From: an uncultured Micavibrio sp.
GTDB lineage: Bacteria > Pseudomonadota > Alphaproteobacteria > Micavibrionales > UBA1664
Assembly (NCBI GenBank): GCA_964531715.1
Contig: CAZHEE010000006.1
Span: 9,306-73,305 of the forward strand
DNA length: 64,000 bases
Direction: 5' to 3'
The notes beneath the pieces are model-generated. The model saw only the letters and a list, made by a program, of their open reading frames with translations. It was not told the DNA's origin and did no database searches. Shown piece by piece: positions 7,614 to 62,422 of the stretch. A program made the translations under genes and the position numbers. The first letter of the stretch is position 1, and each line of letters begins with the position of its first letter.

Positions 7614-7683
7614 CGTCACCCTGAACTTGTTTCAGGGTCTAGCCCTGATATTTGAATAGATCCTGCGATAAATTCAGGATGAT
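7614..7683. repeat. GTCA-tagged REP-like hairpin dimer
   Basis: cGTCACCCTGAA..TTCAGGGTCT-spacer-AGATCCTG..CAGGATGAT; same family as the GIY-YIG-flanking repeats. Confidence 0.75.
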
Positions 7684-45487: not shown

Positions 45488-45655
45488 CGTCATTGCCTGA
45501 AATTCTATAGAGATCCTAAGGCAATCCCTTCACGATTTTTTTTAATTGCAGAGTTAGAGAGTAGAAGGAGTTTATTTGTATAAACTCTGTGATCTCTGTG
45601 GTGAAAACATAACTTTAAGATATTGTAGATTGCAGGAACAAATCCTGCAATGACG
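45488..45655. repeat. GTCA-REP inverted pair enclosing a CAGAG/CTCTGTG-type repeat
   Basis: Left arm cGTCATTGCC..GGCAATC, right arm GATTGCAGG..CCTGCAATGACg, inner CTCTGTGATCTCTGTGGTGAAA. Confidence 0.65.
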
Positions 45656-57863: not shown

Positions 57864-57892
57864 TAGATCCTGAAATAAATTCAGGATGACAA
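57864..57892. repeat. Single GTCA-REP hairpin (may double as terminator)
   Basis: AGATCCTGAAATAAATTCAGGATGACaa, nearly identical to the right arm at about 7658-7683. Confidence 0.7.
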
Positions 57893-57950
57893 TTATTCTT
57901 CTCAGAGTTTTAATTTGCTTTTTCGCTATTTATAATCTAAATACATCCTT

Positions 57951-58040
57951 GGAAGTCGGCGCGGGCGGGTCGCTCGCCAATCTGGTCAGGCCGGAGACGG
58001 AGCAGCCATAACGAATTCATCCGGGTCGTGTCCGACTTCT
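57951..58040 (+). ncRNA. ffs: Signal recognition particle 4.5S RNA
   Basis: Terminal stem GGAAGTCGG..CCGACTTCT, helix 8 GGTCAGGCCG-GAGA-CGGAGCAGCC, and a T-run. Lies upstream of dnaX, as is common. Confidence 0.92.
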
Positions 58041-58066
58041 TTTTTTTATTCGTCATTACAAGAAAA

Positions 58067-58164
58067 CCTTCTCCCTTGGGAGAAAGTGGCGAACACCCGT
58101 GAGCCGGATGAGGGGCTTTAAAACCATATTTCCCCTCACCCTAACCCTCTCCCAAGGGAGAGGG
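58067..58164. repeat. Second copy (inverted) of the CCCCTCACCCTAACCCTCTCCC-type bipartite repeat
   Basis: Reverse complement of 503-604 with a different spacer. Confidence 0.85.
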
Positions 58165-58280
58165 GACTTTGTTTATCTCTTCTTCGCATTAAAATAAATT
58201 CTTCATTTAAATGAGTTCACTACCTAAGAAAAATTGTCCATAGAAATCCCCTCTAAATCTTGCTATCACTTATACAAGAC

Positions 58281-59963
58281 ATGAGTGAGAGTGAAGCAAA
58301 TCAGGATTACCGCGTTTTAGCGCGCAAATACCGCCCTTCCAATTTTGAGGAGCTGATCGGGCAGGATGCGCTTGTCCGTACGCTTAAAAATGCGATTGAG
58401 GCCAACCGCGTGGCACATGCTTTTATCTTAACGGGTATTCGCGGAACGGGGAAAACGACAACCGCACGCATTATTGCAAAGGCCTTGAATTACACAGGCG
58501 CAGATGGGCAGAGCGGTCCGACAGGCGGCGACACGGCGGATTGCGAAGTTTGCCAAGCTATTGCTGAAGATCGCCATCCTGACGTGATGGAGATGGATGC
58601 GGCCTCACGCACGGGGATTGATGATATCCGCGAGATTTTGGATGGTGTCCGCTATGCCCCTATCTCCGCCCGCTATAAGATTTATATCATTGACGAGATT
58701 CATATGCTGTCAAAGCAGGCCTTTAACGCCTTGCTGAAAACCCTTGAGGAGCCGCCATCCCACGTAAAATTTATCTTCGCGACAACGGAAATCCGTAAGG
58801 TTCCGGTCACAATTTTATCACGGTGCCAGCGTTTTGACCTGAAACGGATTGAAACCGAAACCCTTAAGGCGCACTTTGCCACTATCTGCAAAAAAGAAAA
58901 TGTCGAGGCAGAAGATGAGGCCTTACAACTCATCGCAATGGCGGCGGATGGGTCGGTGCGTGACGGATTGTCCCTCCTTGACCAAGCAATGGCAATGGGG
59001 GAGGCAGGCAAGGTGACGGCGGAAGATACGGCAACGATGCTGGGTGCCAGTGACCGCCTGAAAATTCTTGATTTGGTTGAGGCGTCACTCGGCGGACAGG
59101 CTGCAAATGCGCTTGGCATTATGCGCGACCTGTATGCCATGGGTGCCGCGCCTGATACGGTTGTGCAGGATGTGATGGATATGGTTCATGGCTTAAGTGT
59201 CCTGACCGTTACGGATAATACAGGGTTGGATACGCTTCCCCATGCAGGTATGGATAAGGCGAAAGCCATGGCGGCAAAGCTCACAATGATGCAGCTTCAA
59301 CGCGCATGGCAAATTTTGATGAAAGGCATGGTTGAGCTTCATAATGCGCCGAATGCTCAAAAAACCGCCGAGATGATTATCTTAAGGTTGATTTTCGCCG
59401 CGGATATGCCCGACCCTGCGGACTTATTAAAGAAAATTAAGGCTGAAAAACAAACGCAAGCCATCGCGTCTGAACAAAATGCAAATGGGCATGACGGCGG
59501 CAATCAACCGCAATTAAGGGCGATTGCAGGCGGCGGGCAGGCCGTGATGCAAACCGCACCGCTTGAGAATCCCAAGCCGTATAATCAAGAAAGCCCTGAA
59601 ACTTTAGAAGCAATGATAGATTTGTTTGAGCGAAATCGTGAGATGATGCTGGCTGACCATCTCTATCGCAATATCGCGTGCATAACTCTAAAAAAAGGCG
59701 TGTTCGAATTTGTCCCTTACGAGGCTGCGCCGCCAGATTTTGCAGGGCGTGTGCGGTCTTGTTTGCAAGACTGGACAGGGGAACAGTGGATGGTGAGTGT
59801 AACACGGCGGCAGGATGGTGCCCTATCACTTGCCGAGAAAAAACATGCGGCGGAGCAGGAGCAATCAGAAGCCTTGCTGGAAAATTCGACAGTCAAATCG
59901 GTTTTGGATGTTTTTCCCGATGCCGAAATTGTGAAAATTTATAAGTTAAATAAAGAAACTTAA
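58281..59963 (+). CDS. dnaX: DNA polymerase III subunit gamma/tau
   Basis: Motifs LARKYRP, GIRGTGKTT, MDAAS, IIDEIHML, LLKTLEEPP, SRCQRF and GSVRD.LS.LDQ. Confidence 0.97.
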   Translation: MSESEANQDYRVLARKYRPSNFEELIGQDALVRTLKNAIEANRVAHAFILTGIRGTGKTTTARIIAKALNYTGADGQSGPTGGDTADCEVCQAIAEDRHPDVMEMDAASRTGIDDIREILDGVRYAPISARYKIYIIDEIHMLSKQAFNALLKTLEEPPSHVKFIFATTEIRKVPVTILSRCQRFDLKRIETETLKAHFATICKKENVEAEDEALQLIAMAADGSVRDGLSLLDQAMAMGEAGKVTAEDTATMLGASDRLKILDLVEASLGGQAANALGIMRDLYAMGAAPDTVVQDVMDMVHGLSVLTVTDNTGLDTLPHAGMDKAKAMAAKLTMMQLQRAWQILMKGMVELHNAPNAQKTAEMIILRLIFAADMPDPADLLKKIKAEKQTQAIASEQNANGHDGGNQPQLRAIAGGGQAVMQTAPLENPKPYNQESPETLEAMIDLFERNREMMLADHLYRNIACITLKKGVFEFVPYEAAPPDFAGRVRSCLQDWTGEQWMVSVTRRQDGALSLAEKKHAAEQEQSEALLENSTVKSVLDVFPDAEIVKIYKLNKET

Positions 59964-59964
59964 A

Positions 59965-60330
59965 TTGTCATTCTGAGCAAAGCGAAGAATCCCCAAAAAT
60001 GGTCAAAACACATAATTATTACGTTTACATTATGACGAACAAATCTCATTCTACTGTTTATACAGGTGTCACCAATAATTTAGTTCGCCGCGTGTGGGAA
60101 CATCAAAATAAAACAGCGGACGGATTTACAAAAAAATATAACTGCACAAAATTAGTTTTCTTTGAGCACGGAAACTGTATAGAAGGTGCCATAAAGCGTG
60201 AAAAGGAAATAAAAGGCTGGCTGAGAAAAAAGAAAAATAATCTTATCGAAATGAATAATCCTTTATGGGAAGATTTAGGATTAAAGTTAGATATTATAGA
60301 TTAGATTCTTCGCTTTGCTCAGAATGACAA
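59965..60330. mobile_element. Candidate GIY-YIG/REP cassette bounded by perfect 27-bp inverted repeats
   Basis: TTGTCATTCTGAGCAAAGCGAAGAATC (59965-59991) and its exact reverse complement (60304-60330) enclose only the GIY-YIG gene, inside dnaX-ybaB. Confidence 0.7.
59999..60304 (+). CDS. GIY-YIG nuclease family protein (small stand-alone)
   Basis: Motifs YYVYIMTN..VYTGVTNNLVRRVWEH, FTKKY, AIKREKEIKGW.RKKK..LIE..NP.WEDL. AT-richer than the flanking genes. Confidence 0.92.
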   Translation: MVKTHNYYVYIMTNKSHSTVYTGVTNNLVRRVWEHQNKTADGFTKKYNCTKLVFFEHGNCIEGAIKREKEIKGWLRKKKNNLIEMNNPLWEDLGLKLDIID

Positions 60331-60359
60331 AACTAATACATAAAAAGGAGTAAGTCTCA

Positions 60360-60680
60360 ATGGATATGATGAAAATGATGCAACAGGCCAAGCAAATGCA
60401 GGAAAAAATGCAAACAATGACGGCTGAGCTTGACAATGTTGAGGTAACAGGCAGTGCAGGCGGCGGCATGGTCAAGGCGACCATGACATGTAAAGGGCAT
60501 ATGCGCGGCCTTGAAATTGCCCCTGAAGTCATTGACCCTGCGGAGCCTGAAATCTTGCAAGACCTTATCATTGCCGCCGTGAATGACGCGCGGGCGAAAG
60601 GGGAGCAGACACTCGCCGACCGTACGAAAGACATGATGTCTTCGATGGGGCTCCCTGCGGATATTAAACTCCCGTTTTAA
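60360..60680 (+). CDS. ybaB: YbaB/EbfC nucleoid-associated protein
   Basis: Motifs MMQQAKQMQEKM, GSAGGGMV and LQDLIIAAVNDA. AAGGAG RBS. Confidence 0.95.
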   Translation: MDMMKMMQQAKQMQEKMQTMTAELDNVEVTGSAGGGMVKATMTCKGHMRGLEIAPEVIDPAEPEILQDLIIAAVNDARAKGEQTLADRTKDMMSSMGLPADIKLPF

Positions 60681-60691
60681 ATCTTATTATA

Positions 60692-61300
60692 ATGGATGAA
60701 ATAGACAAGATTTTTACATCGCAATGCGATTTTATAGCGGGCGTGGATACGCTCGACTGGTTACCGCCTGCGACTTTGCCAGAGGTTGCATTCGCCGGGC
60801 GGTCAAATGTCGGGAAATCAACATTGATAAATGCGCTTACCGCGCGAAAGAAACTGGCGCGGACATCCAACACACCCGGGCGAACGCAACAGCTCAATTT
60901 CTTTAATATCGGCGAAACATTCCATTTGGTCGATATGCCTGGTTATGGCTATGCAAAGGTTTCAAAATCGAAAATCAAGAATTGGACGAAGGTTTTAGAA
61001 AACTATCTGAAAGGGCGCGTGACCTTACGCCTCGCGCTTGTGCTTGTTGATTCCCGCCATGGGTTGAAAGACGGCGACCGCGAGATGATGGACTTACTCA
61101 ATAAGGCCGCGGTGCCTTACCGCGTGGTTTTGACTAAAACTGATAAAGCCAATCAGGCCGAGCTTACAAAAACACTGGAAACTGTTGCAAAAGAGCTTAA
61201 GAAAAACCCTGCCGCCCATCCCGAGCCTATATTGACCGCAGCAGAAAAAAAGCATGGTATTCAAGAATTAAGGCAAATTATCAGCCATTCCGTACTATAA
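60692..61300 (+). CDS. engB: Ribosome biogenesis GTPase EngB/YihA
   Basis: Motifs GRSNVGKS, SNTPGRTQ, DMPGYGYA, DSRHG and TKTDK. Confidence 0.95.
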   Translation: MDEIDKIFTSQCDFIAGVDTLDWLPPATLPEVAFAGRSNVGKSTLINALTARKKLARTSNTPGRTQQLNFFNIGETFHLVDMPGYGYAKVSKSKIKNWTKVLENYLKGRVTLRLALVLVDSRHGLKDGDREMMDLLNKAAVPYRVVLTKTDKANQAELTKTLETVAKELKKNPAAHPEPILTAAEKKHGIQELRQIISHSVL

Positions 61301-61337
61301 AATTGAAAAATTATAAAAATAACTTATCTAGAAATAT

Positions 61338-61547
61338 ATGGTTTATTTCATCATTGCATTTGGGCTAGCTGTTGCCATATTGGCAGCTATTTATAGTCTT
61401 GGAGGCGGGGCTACATATCTTGCAGGTTTTAATGCGTTTCTTGGCGCAAATGCCTTACTCTATGTTATTTTTGCCATTATTCTGATCATATTGATGACTG
61501 CCATTTGTGCGATGCTGATTATTCGACGCAGACACGCGCGGCGGTGA
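61338..61547 (+). CDS. Small two-TM membrane protein
   Basis: Two hydrophobic helices and a basic tail. Stop overlaps the next gene's GTG (GTGA). Confidence 0.6.
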   Translation: MVYFIIAFGLAVAILAAIYSLGGGATYLAGFNAFLGANALLYVIFAIILIILMTAICAMLIIRRRHARR

Positions 61548-62422
61548 GAAATTTTGACAGCTTTATCGGGATAGATTGGTCAGGTGCGAAAAGCCCAATC
61601 AAAAGCAAAGCAATTGCCGTTGCCACATGCTCTCATGGAAAAGAAGCCCCGACACTCATTAGCCAGAGATGGTCTCGTGAGGATGTCTCCGACTATATTC
61701 AATCACTTTTAGGGCAGGGCAAACGAACATTAATCGGGATAGATTGCAATTTTGGCTATGCCGCACAAACTATTGAAAAGCAATTCGGAAAAGATGCCAC
61801 AGCCGCAAACCTCTGGCAAAAAGTTGAAGAACTCAACACACATCATATGAATTTTTTCGCAGGTGATTTTTTTTCTCACCCTGACTACGCGCCTTATTTC
61901 TGGACAGAAGGCAAAATGCCCGAGAATTTTACTATGCCGCAACGCATGACCGAAACCCAATGTGCAAAAGATGGCTTGGGTCGCCCTGAAAGCCCTTTTA
62001 AACTTATCGGCGCAAAGCAAGTTGGAAAAGGCGGTTTGGCGGGCATGCGCCTTGCCCATTCTCTTAAGCAGAATCAAGGCGATAAAATCGCTATCTGGCC
62101 TTTTGATAGCATTGCACTATGCGACAAGGCAGAAATTATTATCACCGAAATCTACCCGCGGCAATTTATCAAACGGGCAGGCTTTGGTGATAAGAAAATT
62201 AGAGATTGCAATGGCGTGAATATTGCCCTTAAAAATTTAGATAGCTTAAGCATTAAAAACCGTGAAATTTCTGATCATCAAACGGATGCACTCATCTCCG
62301 CGGCGGGCTTAAGGCATTTATGCGGAAACGATGTAGCTATACCCGAAAGCCTAGCCACGCCACCTGCACCTCATCCCATTTTGCAAAAAGAAGGTTGGAT
62401 TTTCGGGGTTGGTCATTTATGA
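61544..62422 (+). CDS. DUF429-like putative RNase H-fold nuclease
   Basis: Acidic motifs FIGIDWSGA, LIGIDCNFG, EIYPR and DHQTDALISA. Confidence 0.6.
   Translation: MRNFDSFIGIDWSGAKSPIKSKAIAVATCSHGKEAPTLISQRWSREDVSDYIQSLLGQGKRTLIGIDCNFGYAAQTIEKQFGKDATAANLWQKVEELNTHHMNFFAGDFFSHPDYAPYFWTEGKMPENFTMPQRMTETQCAKDGLGRPESPFKLIGAKQVGKGGLAGMRLAHSLKQNQGDKIAIWPFDSIALCDKAEIIITEIYPRQFIKRAGFGDKKIRDCNGVNIALKNLDSLSIKNREISDHQTDALISAAGLRHLCGNDVAIPESLATPPAPHPILQKEGWIFGVGHL

Follow-up and report, generated by a model that had tools for sequence, protein, structure and literature searches.

The RAYT/TnpA-REP proteins, which go with the REP and BIME repeats, are HUH Y1 transposases related to those of IS200/IS605. 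Homing endonucleases of the GIY-YIG type are well known, and GIY-YIG enzymes hydrolyse their substrate without a covalent intermediate. The palindromic elements of Rickettsia are found in frame within protein-coding genes.

The described system closest to the locus studied here is Ssn, a group of single-domain GIY-YIG nucleases that cut ssDNA beside GTCAT-tagged hairpin repeats named NTS or SRM (Chenal et al. 2025, Nat Commun, PMC11893778). The Neisseria NTS is CGTCATTCCCGCGMAVGCGGGAATCYRG, and its looser relatives are called SRM. The gene ssnA codes for a single GIY-YIG domain of 94 aa (CDD cd10448) and is flanked by NTS. The homology criterion of that paper is an E-value to SsnA below 1e-10, and at least one SRM is reported near 71% of the Ssn homologs, with SRM on both sides in 42%. 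Four purified homologs cut ssDNA in vitro upstream of the hairpin and left dsDNA, RNA and the reverse strand uncut. According to the mutagenesis, cutting depends most on the three bases 5' of the palindrome and binding on the C that follows it, and in N. meningitidis an effect on transformation was found. The Discussion describes the NTS-ssnA-NTS layout as IS-like and compares it with RAYT/REP, and the passages considered here show no mobility (PMC11893778). Single-stranded DNA tools are also proposed there.

A cassette with this layout lies in a 64,000-nt stretch (the window; positions refer to the whole of it) of the genome under study, G000 (1.57 Mb, 26 contigs). The features around it are the following.

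57949-58045, + strand: small bacterial SRP RNA gene, just 5' of dnaX (RF00169, 51.3 bits, E 2.8e-10)
58260-59963, + strand: dnaX, 567 aa, with clamp-loader domains including DUF3646; upstream neighbour of the cassette
59965-59991, + strand: left arm, a tagged hairpin reading TT-GTCAT-TCT-GA-GC-AAA-GC-GA-AGA-ATC on the top strand, with GTC 5' and C 3' of the palindrome
59999-60304, + strand: Ssn-like GIY-YIG nuclease gene, 101 aa, single-domain (PF01541, E 2.6e-15)
60304-60330, - strand: right arm, exact reverse complement of the left arm, with the tag outward and read on the bottom strand
60360-60680, + strand: ybaB, 106 aa, downstream neighbour of the cassette
start at 60692: YihA/EngB-type GTPase gene, downstream of ybaB

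Since the SRP RNA gene lies upstream of dnaX, the local order is ffs, dnaX, cassette, ybaB, engB. A single base (59964) separates the dnaX stop from the left arm; the right arm shares one base with the GIY-YIG gene, the last of its stop codon. The arms measure 27 nt each, are 100% complementary and enclose 312 nt. Allowing up to 3 mismatches, the 27-mer occurs in the window only as these two arms, with 0 copies expected (100 shuffles), and the 25-nt core of the arm is likewise confined to them in the whole 1.57 Mb. The initial annotation had described a 101-aa GIY-YIG gene as the sole cargo between exact 27-bp inverted repeats, starting 1 nt past the dnaX stop and parting dnaX from ybaB, without a transposase and without an obvious target duplication. 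All of this holds: the coordinates agree, the GIY-YIG gene is the only one that Pfam supports between the arms, and local alignment against shuffles gave no significant direct repeat flanking the cassette. A 12-15-nt direct repeat of the dnaX end, considered as a target duplication in G000 and in its congener G002, was rejected, as 1741/2000 and 161/2000 shuffles, respectively, scored as high. The Rfam search of positions 58000-62000 (E up to 1) gave no match on the arms and only a sub-threshold whalefall-1 match at 58132-58166 (19.5 bits, cut-off 37). The latter falls in a different repeat-like stretch between the SRP RNA gene and dnaX (58050-58170), which carries CTCCCTTGGGAGA-type palindromes.

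The likeness to Ssn extends to several levels. The window protein is a single-domain GIY-YIG protein of 101 aa (Ssn, about 94-100 aa), its gene is framed by inverted hairpins with GTCAT on the 5' side and ATC-Y on the 3' side, and, as for Ssn, hundreds of tagged hairpins are spread over a small genome (PMC11893778). The arms have the Ssn layout, that is, oriented hairpins on both sides, the three conserved upstream bases and the C after the palindrome. They differ from Ssn repeats by their short stem of 4+2 bp, interrupted by a tandem G-A mismatch, and 13 of the 28 positions of the NTS consensus disagree. Neither arm is matched by the published SRM search string, a search heuristic and not a definition. 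The string has 28 matches in the genome, compared with 2 after reversal of the genome and 6-12 in block shuffles; the 28-nt NTS consensus is found within 6 mismatches at 23 sites, and at none when the genome is reversed. Among the 15 small GIY-YIG genes present, three have exact matches to the string on both sides and one has a match on one side; the three resemble the window protein with E-values of 3.6e-27, 1.0e-24 and 6.2e-20. Judged by these indirect links, the window protein is a probable member of the Ssn family. A further difference is that G000 has 14 such paralogs with distinct cognate hairpins, a case absent from the passages of PMC11893778 considered here. Our literature search returned no other paper on this system, and the supplementary data of PMC11893778 may list multi-copy genomes. 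The earlier statement that the mobilising enzyme of this class of tagged palindromes is not well established is thus out of date, and the core of the initial reading, a partnership between enzyme and repeat, largely rediscovers the 2025 result. As the partnership is published, the cassette itself is no discovery.

Each arm had been regarded as a hairpin in its own right. By folding energy alone it is not: the window arm, which would form 4 bp, a tandem G-A/A-G mismatch, 2 bp and a 3-nt loop, reaches -1.9 kcal/mol (z -0.64), and 54 of 200 shuffles fold equally well. Since energy folding was no better than the shuffles, covariation was used instead, on 28 arms of 25 nt (27 distinct), namely those of the window, of the G002 ortholog and of homologs found in other phyla. 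In the 27 distinct arms, collected with a pattern that left the outer stem free and the inner stem partly fixed, all 162 of 162 cells were paired (100%), against 16-61% in controls with the structure slid along the arm. Four of the six pairs had compensatory changes, and double changes amounted to 26 cells, compared with 8.4 +/- 2.1 in shuffles (0/500 as high). Hence, as far as sequence comparison goes, the arms are hairpins. Read on its outward strand, each window arm consists of GTC, the palindrome ATTCT...AGAAT and C.

PF01541 spans residues 6-80 of the 101 aa of the window protein, and no second Pfam family scored above cut-off. With PF01541 as the only family, no covalent strand-transfer chemistry is expected for this protein. 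Residues Y10, Y21, G23, R31, H35 and E68 are all present; Y10, Y21, R31 and E68 do not vary in any of 92 aligned relatives and H35 is kept in 91 of them. No NCBIfam family matched the protein, and its sole sequence match in the PDB is a weak one, 1zg2 (BH0048; E 2.1e-5). The protein thus shares size and fold with the small GIY-YIG proteins of the UPF0213/YhbQ type, at weak similarity. Between the G000 and G002 orthologs pN is 0.16 and pS 0.82 (saturated), and their arms show 1-3 differences in the 25-nt core. The low pN relative to pS and the few differences between the arms point to constraint on both protein and arms.

Relatives of the window protein number at least 580 in contigs from one genome per species. 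The best 80 of these come from Firmicutes, Cloacimonadota, Verrucomicrobiota, Cyanobacteria, candidate phyla and others. Enrichment of inverted repeats around homologues, proposed at the outset as a check, was found: 36 of these best 80 loci carry a flanking inverted repeat scoring at least 14, against 3 of 147 displaced control windows, and 25 of the 36 have the tag at the outer end of the arm. Within the same 80, the top foreign homologs share 68%, 66% and 63% identity with the window protein, more than any paralog of its own genome (60% or less).

A search of G000 with the window protein gave 14 places, one of them with an internal TAA and one truncated. Thirteen of the 14 homologs have flanking inverted arms scoring at least 16, and 11 of these 13 carry GTCA at the outer end; the fourteenth has degenerate arms only. 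The format (tag, stem, loop, stem, ATC) is constant across copies, and it is the stems that vary. Across the genome PF01541 is found in 16 places, which besides the 14 are UvrC and a small GIY-YIG gene of another type. The cassettes occupy at least 12 unrelated intergenic sites between housekeeping genes, and 12 or 13 of the 14 point in the same direction as both neighbours. Sites include the following.

Translation/replication: nusA-infB, infB-rbfA and dnaX-ybaB
Metabolism: pdhA-pdhB and E2-lpdA
Around prfA: ispG-prfA and prfA-prmC
Others: between two Band-7 genes, murJ-trpS, and upstream of obg

Co-phylogeny of nuclease and repeat had also been proposed as a check. In a comparison of 13 elements, protein identity and arm similarity are correlated (Mantel r 0.42, reached in 7 of 5000 permutations), a result that is suggestive only, because related elements are not independent.

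As the SRM string missed the window arms and had few matches in the genome, a structure-based scan of our own was used (GTCA, stem, loop, stem, TC, with an exact stem). It gave 218 hairpins with a stem of at least 5, against 8 and 18 for scrambled-tag controls, and with one mismatch allowed 225 tagged hairpins have at least 6 pairs. In these 225, position -1 is C in 150 and T in 56; after the terminal TC, position +1 is C or T in 209 and +2 is A in 153. The C at -1 and the C/T and A after the terminal TC are shared with the Neisseria NTS consensus; farther upstream the sequence is A/T-rich and unconserved. Hairpins less than 60 nt apart form 52 convergent (+,-) pairs without a gene, against a single (-,+) pair. 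The spacers of 51 of the 52 measure 11-26 nt, and gene-less pairs at different loci have spacer sequence in common. Such pairs look like cassettes minus the gene. In the 66 convergent units of the genome a k-mer test gave no target duplication of 3 nt or more, and a 2-nt signal at one offset (16 vs 7.3) that is uncorrected for multiple tests.

The scan located these further tagged hairpins in the window.

7615-7639, + strand: solo GTCA-tagged hairpin of the CCCTGAA type
13022: GTCA-tagged hairpin
45489-45526 (+ strand) and 45628-45654 (- strand): two convergent GTCA-tagged hairpins of other stem families, 101 nt apart
57866-57890, - strand: solo GTCA-tagged hairpin of the TCCTGAA type, with an upstream ORF on one side and the SRP RNA gene on the other

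All of them belong to stem families other than that of the cassette, and several of these families are matched by cognate paralogs of their own at other places in the genome. The initial annotation had cast the GIY-YIG protein in the role that RAYT plays for REP, acting on the GTCA-tagged repeats of the window. What stands is that a small nuclease of this kind is the partner of GTCA-tagged hairpins; the window's other repeats have other stems and, the arm type of the cassette being absent elsewhere in the genome, the window copy is not their evident driver.

The two most abundant hairpin families of the genome, TTACACG (37 copies) and TTGCACG (35 copies), are both found at G000:C2:112514-114277. 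There prfA stands between two adjacent paralogs, 82% identical to each other, and each family flanks one of the two; the gene-less pairs of these families are mostly mixed, with one arm from each. The TCCTGAA (14 copies) and CCCTGAA (9 copies) hairpins of G000 occur mostly as gene-less pairs with no paralog between them. At locus L107, from an uncultured alphaproteobacterium, hairpins of both types flank a GIY-YIG homolog. Since they flank a homolog in L107 and none in G000, those of G000 may be orphans, derived from units whose enzyme gene exists only outside this genome.

The history of the cassette can be followed at dnaX-ybaB, the occupancy of which was scored in five of six congeners (G003 was left out). 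An empty site in relatives had been named as a first thing to look for, and it is present in four of them: in G001, G004, G005 and G006 the ybaB ATG follows 2-5 nt past the dnaX stop. G002 has an orthologous cassette at the same junction. The right flank in G000 retains GGAGTAAGTC, which in G004 spans the dnaX stop, so that the insertion appears to have occurred inside the last codons of the ancestral dnaX. G000 and G002 are not sisters. Over 837 columns of DnaX, YbaB and the C-terminal part of PrmC (outgroups with the PrmC part only), G002 is 74% identical to the empty G006 and 67% to the occupied G000, and the AU test rejects a G000+G002 clade (log-likelihood difference 30.6, p 0.0005) in a tree with most inner branches unresolved. 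One gain alone therefore cannot explain the pattern. The G000 and G002 cassettes are identical in 71 of 102 aligned columns, DnaX in 70%; being as diverged as its flanks, the cassette is old at dnaX-ybaB, and repeated loss after long vertical residence fits as well as repeated insertion.

Another paralog is present twice. Its two copies, each 379 nt long, running from TGTCAT to ATGAC and set in unrelated flanks, are 100% identical and are separated by 3.6 kb within the pyruvate dehydrogenase operon.

G000:C5:12174-12552 (locus L130, 575-953): first copy
G000:C5:15829-16207 (locus L130, 4230-4608): second copy

One separates pdhA from pdhB, the other separates the E2 gene from lpdA; the pdhA-pdhB junction of G006 is empty. 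At that site G001 and G002 each have a different unrelated small ORF of about 330-340 nt, which marks it as a recurrent insertion spot. The arm type of the window is present in 2 copies in G000, 13 in G002 and 4 in G034, and in none in G004 and G006, the genomes in which no homolog of the window protein was found either. Four public contigs holding the locus, all from one sample of one study, bridge both junctions and have no joint that skips the cassette; with a depth of 3-5 and contigs only, they are uninformative on excision. Among the public runs, no RNA data held the locus. Taken as patterns in the sequence, the empty sites, the identical copies, the gene-less pairs and the covariation of nuclease and arm support mobility, its mechanism being a separate matter.

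We consider it likely that the cassette is an Ssn unit of the NTS-ssn-NTS type, a selfish or semi-domesticated insertion in the last dnaX codons that was gained or lost more than once in the genus and is under purifying selection. By analogy with the four assayed homologs, the window protein would bind the hairpin of one strand per arm when the DNA is single-stranded, would read the bases that border the palindrome (GTC on its 5' side, C on its 3' side), and would place its cut a few nt 5' of the tag, sparing dsDNA, RNA and the opposite strand. Since the arms are inverted and carry their tags on the outside, two cuts would be expected just outside the cassette, one per strand, so as to bracket it. 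Because GIY-YIG hydrolysis involves no covalent intermediate, any copying would have to use host repair or recombination, probably at these single-strand breaks, and not the covalent strand transfer of HUH enzymes. The window arm type having no further copy in the genome, there is no sign of activity of this particular copy here.

The unit can be compared with known mobile systems. With RAYT/REP it shares a single gene flanked by inverted copies of a hairpin repeat spread over the genome, the recognition of single-strand hairpins (for the window protein by analogy), the lack of target duplication and the location of repeats between co-directional genes; it differs in that its enzyme is a hydrolytic GIY-YIG nuclease and not an HUH tyrosine transposase. 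Of the marks of a classical insertion sequence (terminal inverted repeats, target duplication, several identical copies), inverted repeats are present and no target duplication was found; the window element is single-copy, although a paralogous element has two identical copies. A broader reading, which we put forward tentatively and credit with somewhat less than an even chance, is that NTS-ssn-NTS units are autonomous transposable elements driven by a hydrolytic GIY-YIG ssDNA nuclease, with the gene-less pairs as non-autonomous derivatives. The genome would then offer at least ten nuclease/hairpin pairs orthogonal to one another; they would insert between housekeeping genes of like direction, and even in frame within a gene, and leave no target duplication. 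If true, this would be a chemistry not described for transposition in bacteria.

The purifying selection just mentioned could also be read as the mark of a fully domesticated, immobile pair with a host function at dnaX-ybaB, for example the restriction of incoming motif-bearing ssDNA as proposed for Neisseria (PMC11893778), in which the repeats would be regulatory or self-marking sites and not transposon ends. The G002 ortholog at the same site with its low pN relative to pS, a cassette divergence equal to that of the flanking genes, arms kept nearly unchanged over the same time span, an arm type without further copies in G000 and the transformation effect in N. meningitidis (PMC11893778) would all suit such a pair. 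We find it unlikely nonetheless, as occupancy is not monophyletic in the genus, four congeners are without the cassette and two of these (G004 and G006) without any homolog, another paralog exists in two identical copies with unrelated flanks, 52 pairs are gene-less, and homologs from other phyla (up to 68%) are closer to the window protein than the paralogs of its own genome (60% or less).

That the same site is filled in two non-sister genomes, with no target duplication, could bring to mind a classical free-standing GIY-YIG homing endonuclease, which would cut dsDNA at the empty dnaX-ybaB site and spread by double-strand-break repair, the inverted repeat being incidental. The catalytic fold and the selfish-gene behaviour are indeed those of I-TevI and Seg. 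Unlike them, the cassette codes for a bare 101-aa catalytic domain, with neither a DNA-binding domain nor an intron, its relatives sit at 12 or more unrelated intergenic sites, and its terminal repeats are structured, conserved, covarying and found also without the gene. The assayed relatives spare dsDNA (PMC11893778), and homing of this kind seems to us very improbable. A 27-bp stem around the ORF could form in a dnaX-ybaB transcript, so the inverted repeat might be a purely RNA-level feature, an mRNA stem or a terminator, or even a chance one, around an unrelated small gene. We give this practically no credence: 0 matches are expected by chance, the architecture recurs in 13 of 14 paralogs and in 36 of the best 80 of at least 580 distant loci, no Rfam family reached threshold on the arms, and the assayed relatives were inactive on RNA (PMC11893778).

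Whether such units are mobile and how their repeats multiply is the question left by PMC11893778 in the passages considered. G000 is unusually informative on the mobility of Ssn-type cassettes. It brings together 14 paralogs each with its own hairpin variant, identical copies with sharp TGTCAT...ATGAC ends, occupied and empty alleles within one genus, and 52 gene-less pairs, one of them in frame within prmC. It is also a natural panel of nucleases and hairpins for the study of specificity, relevant to the ssDNA tools proposed by Chenal et al. (PMC11893778).

The small GIY-YIG gene of another type, at G000:C15:18212-18424, was missed by the search with the window protein and is without GTCA arms. 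It is flanked by the direct repeat TCTCATCCCGACCA, close to a contig end and beside a tRNA-like sequence. From its sequence we take it to be of the UPF0213 type.

The convergent GTCA-hairpin pair within prmC lies at G000:C2:112064-112161 (about 1051-1148 of locus L015, in a minus-strand gene), where the frame stays open through it. The pair sits directly ahead of the SAM-binding motif of this release-factor methyltransferase, and in alignments with six of six congeners its stretch is skipped, about 33 query residues standing against 5-6 subject residues. The in-frame position and the unbroken frame recall the palindromic elements of Rickettsia; the sequence family is another one, and the tie of the prmC pair to the GIY-YIG nuclease is by co-occurrence only. 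At G000:C2:111557-112789 (541-1773 of locus L015, minus strand) the GIY-YIG gene between prfA and prmC continues through its right hairpin into prmC as one open frame of 410 aa, and G005 has a similar open frame of 403 aa at the same place.
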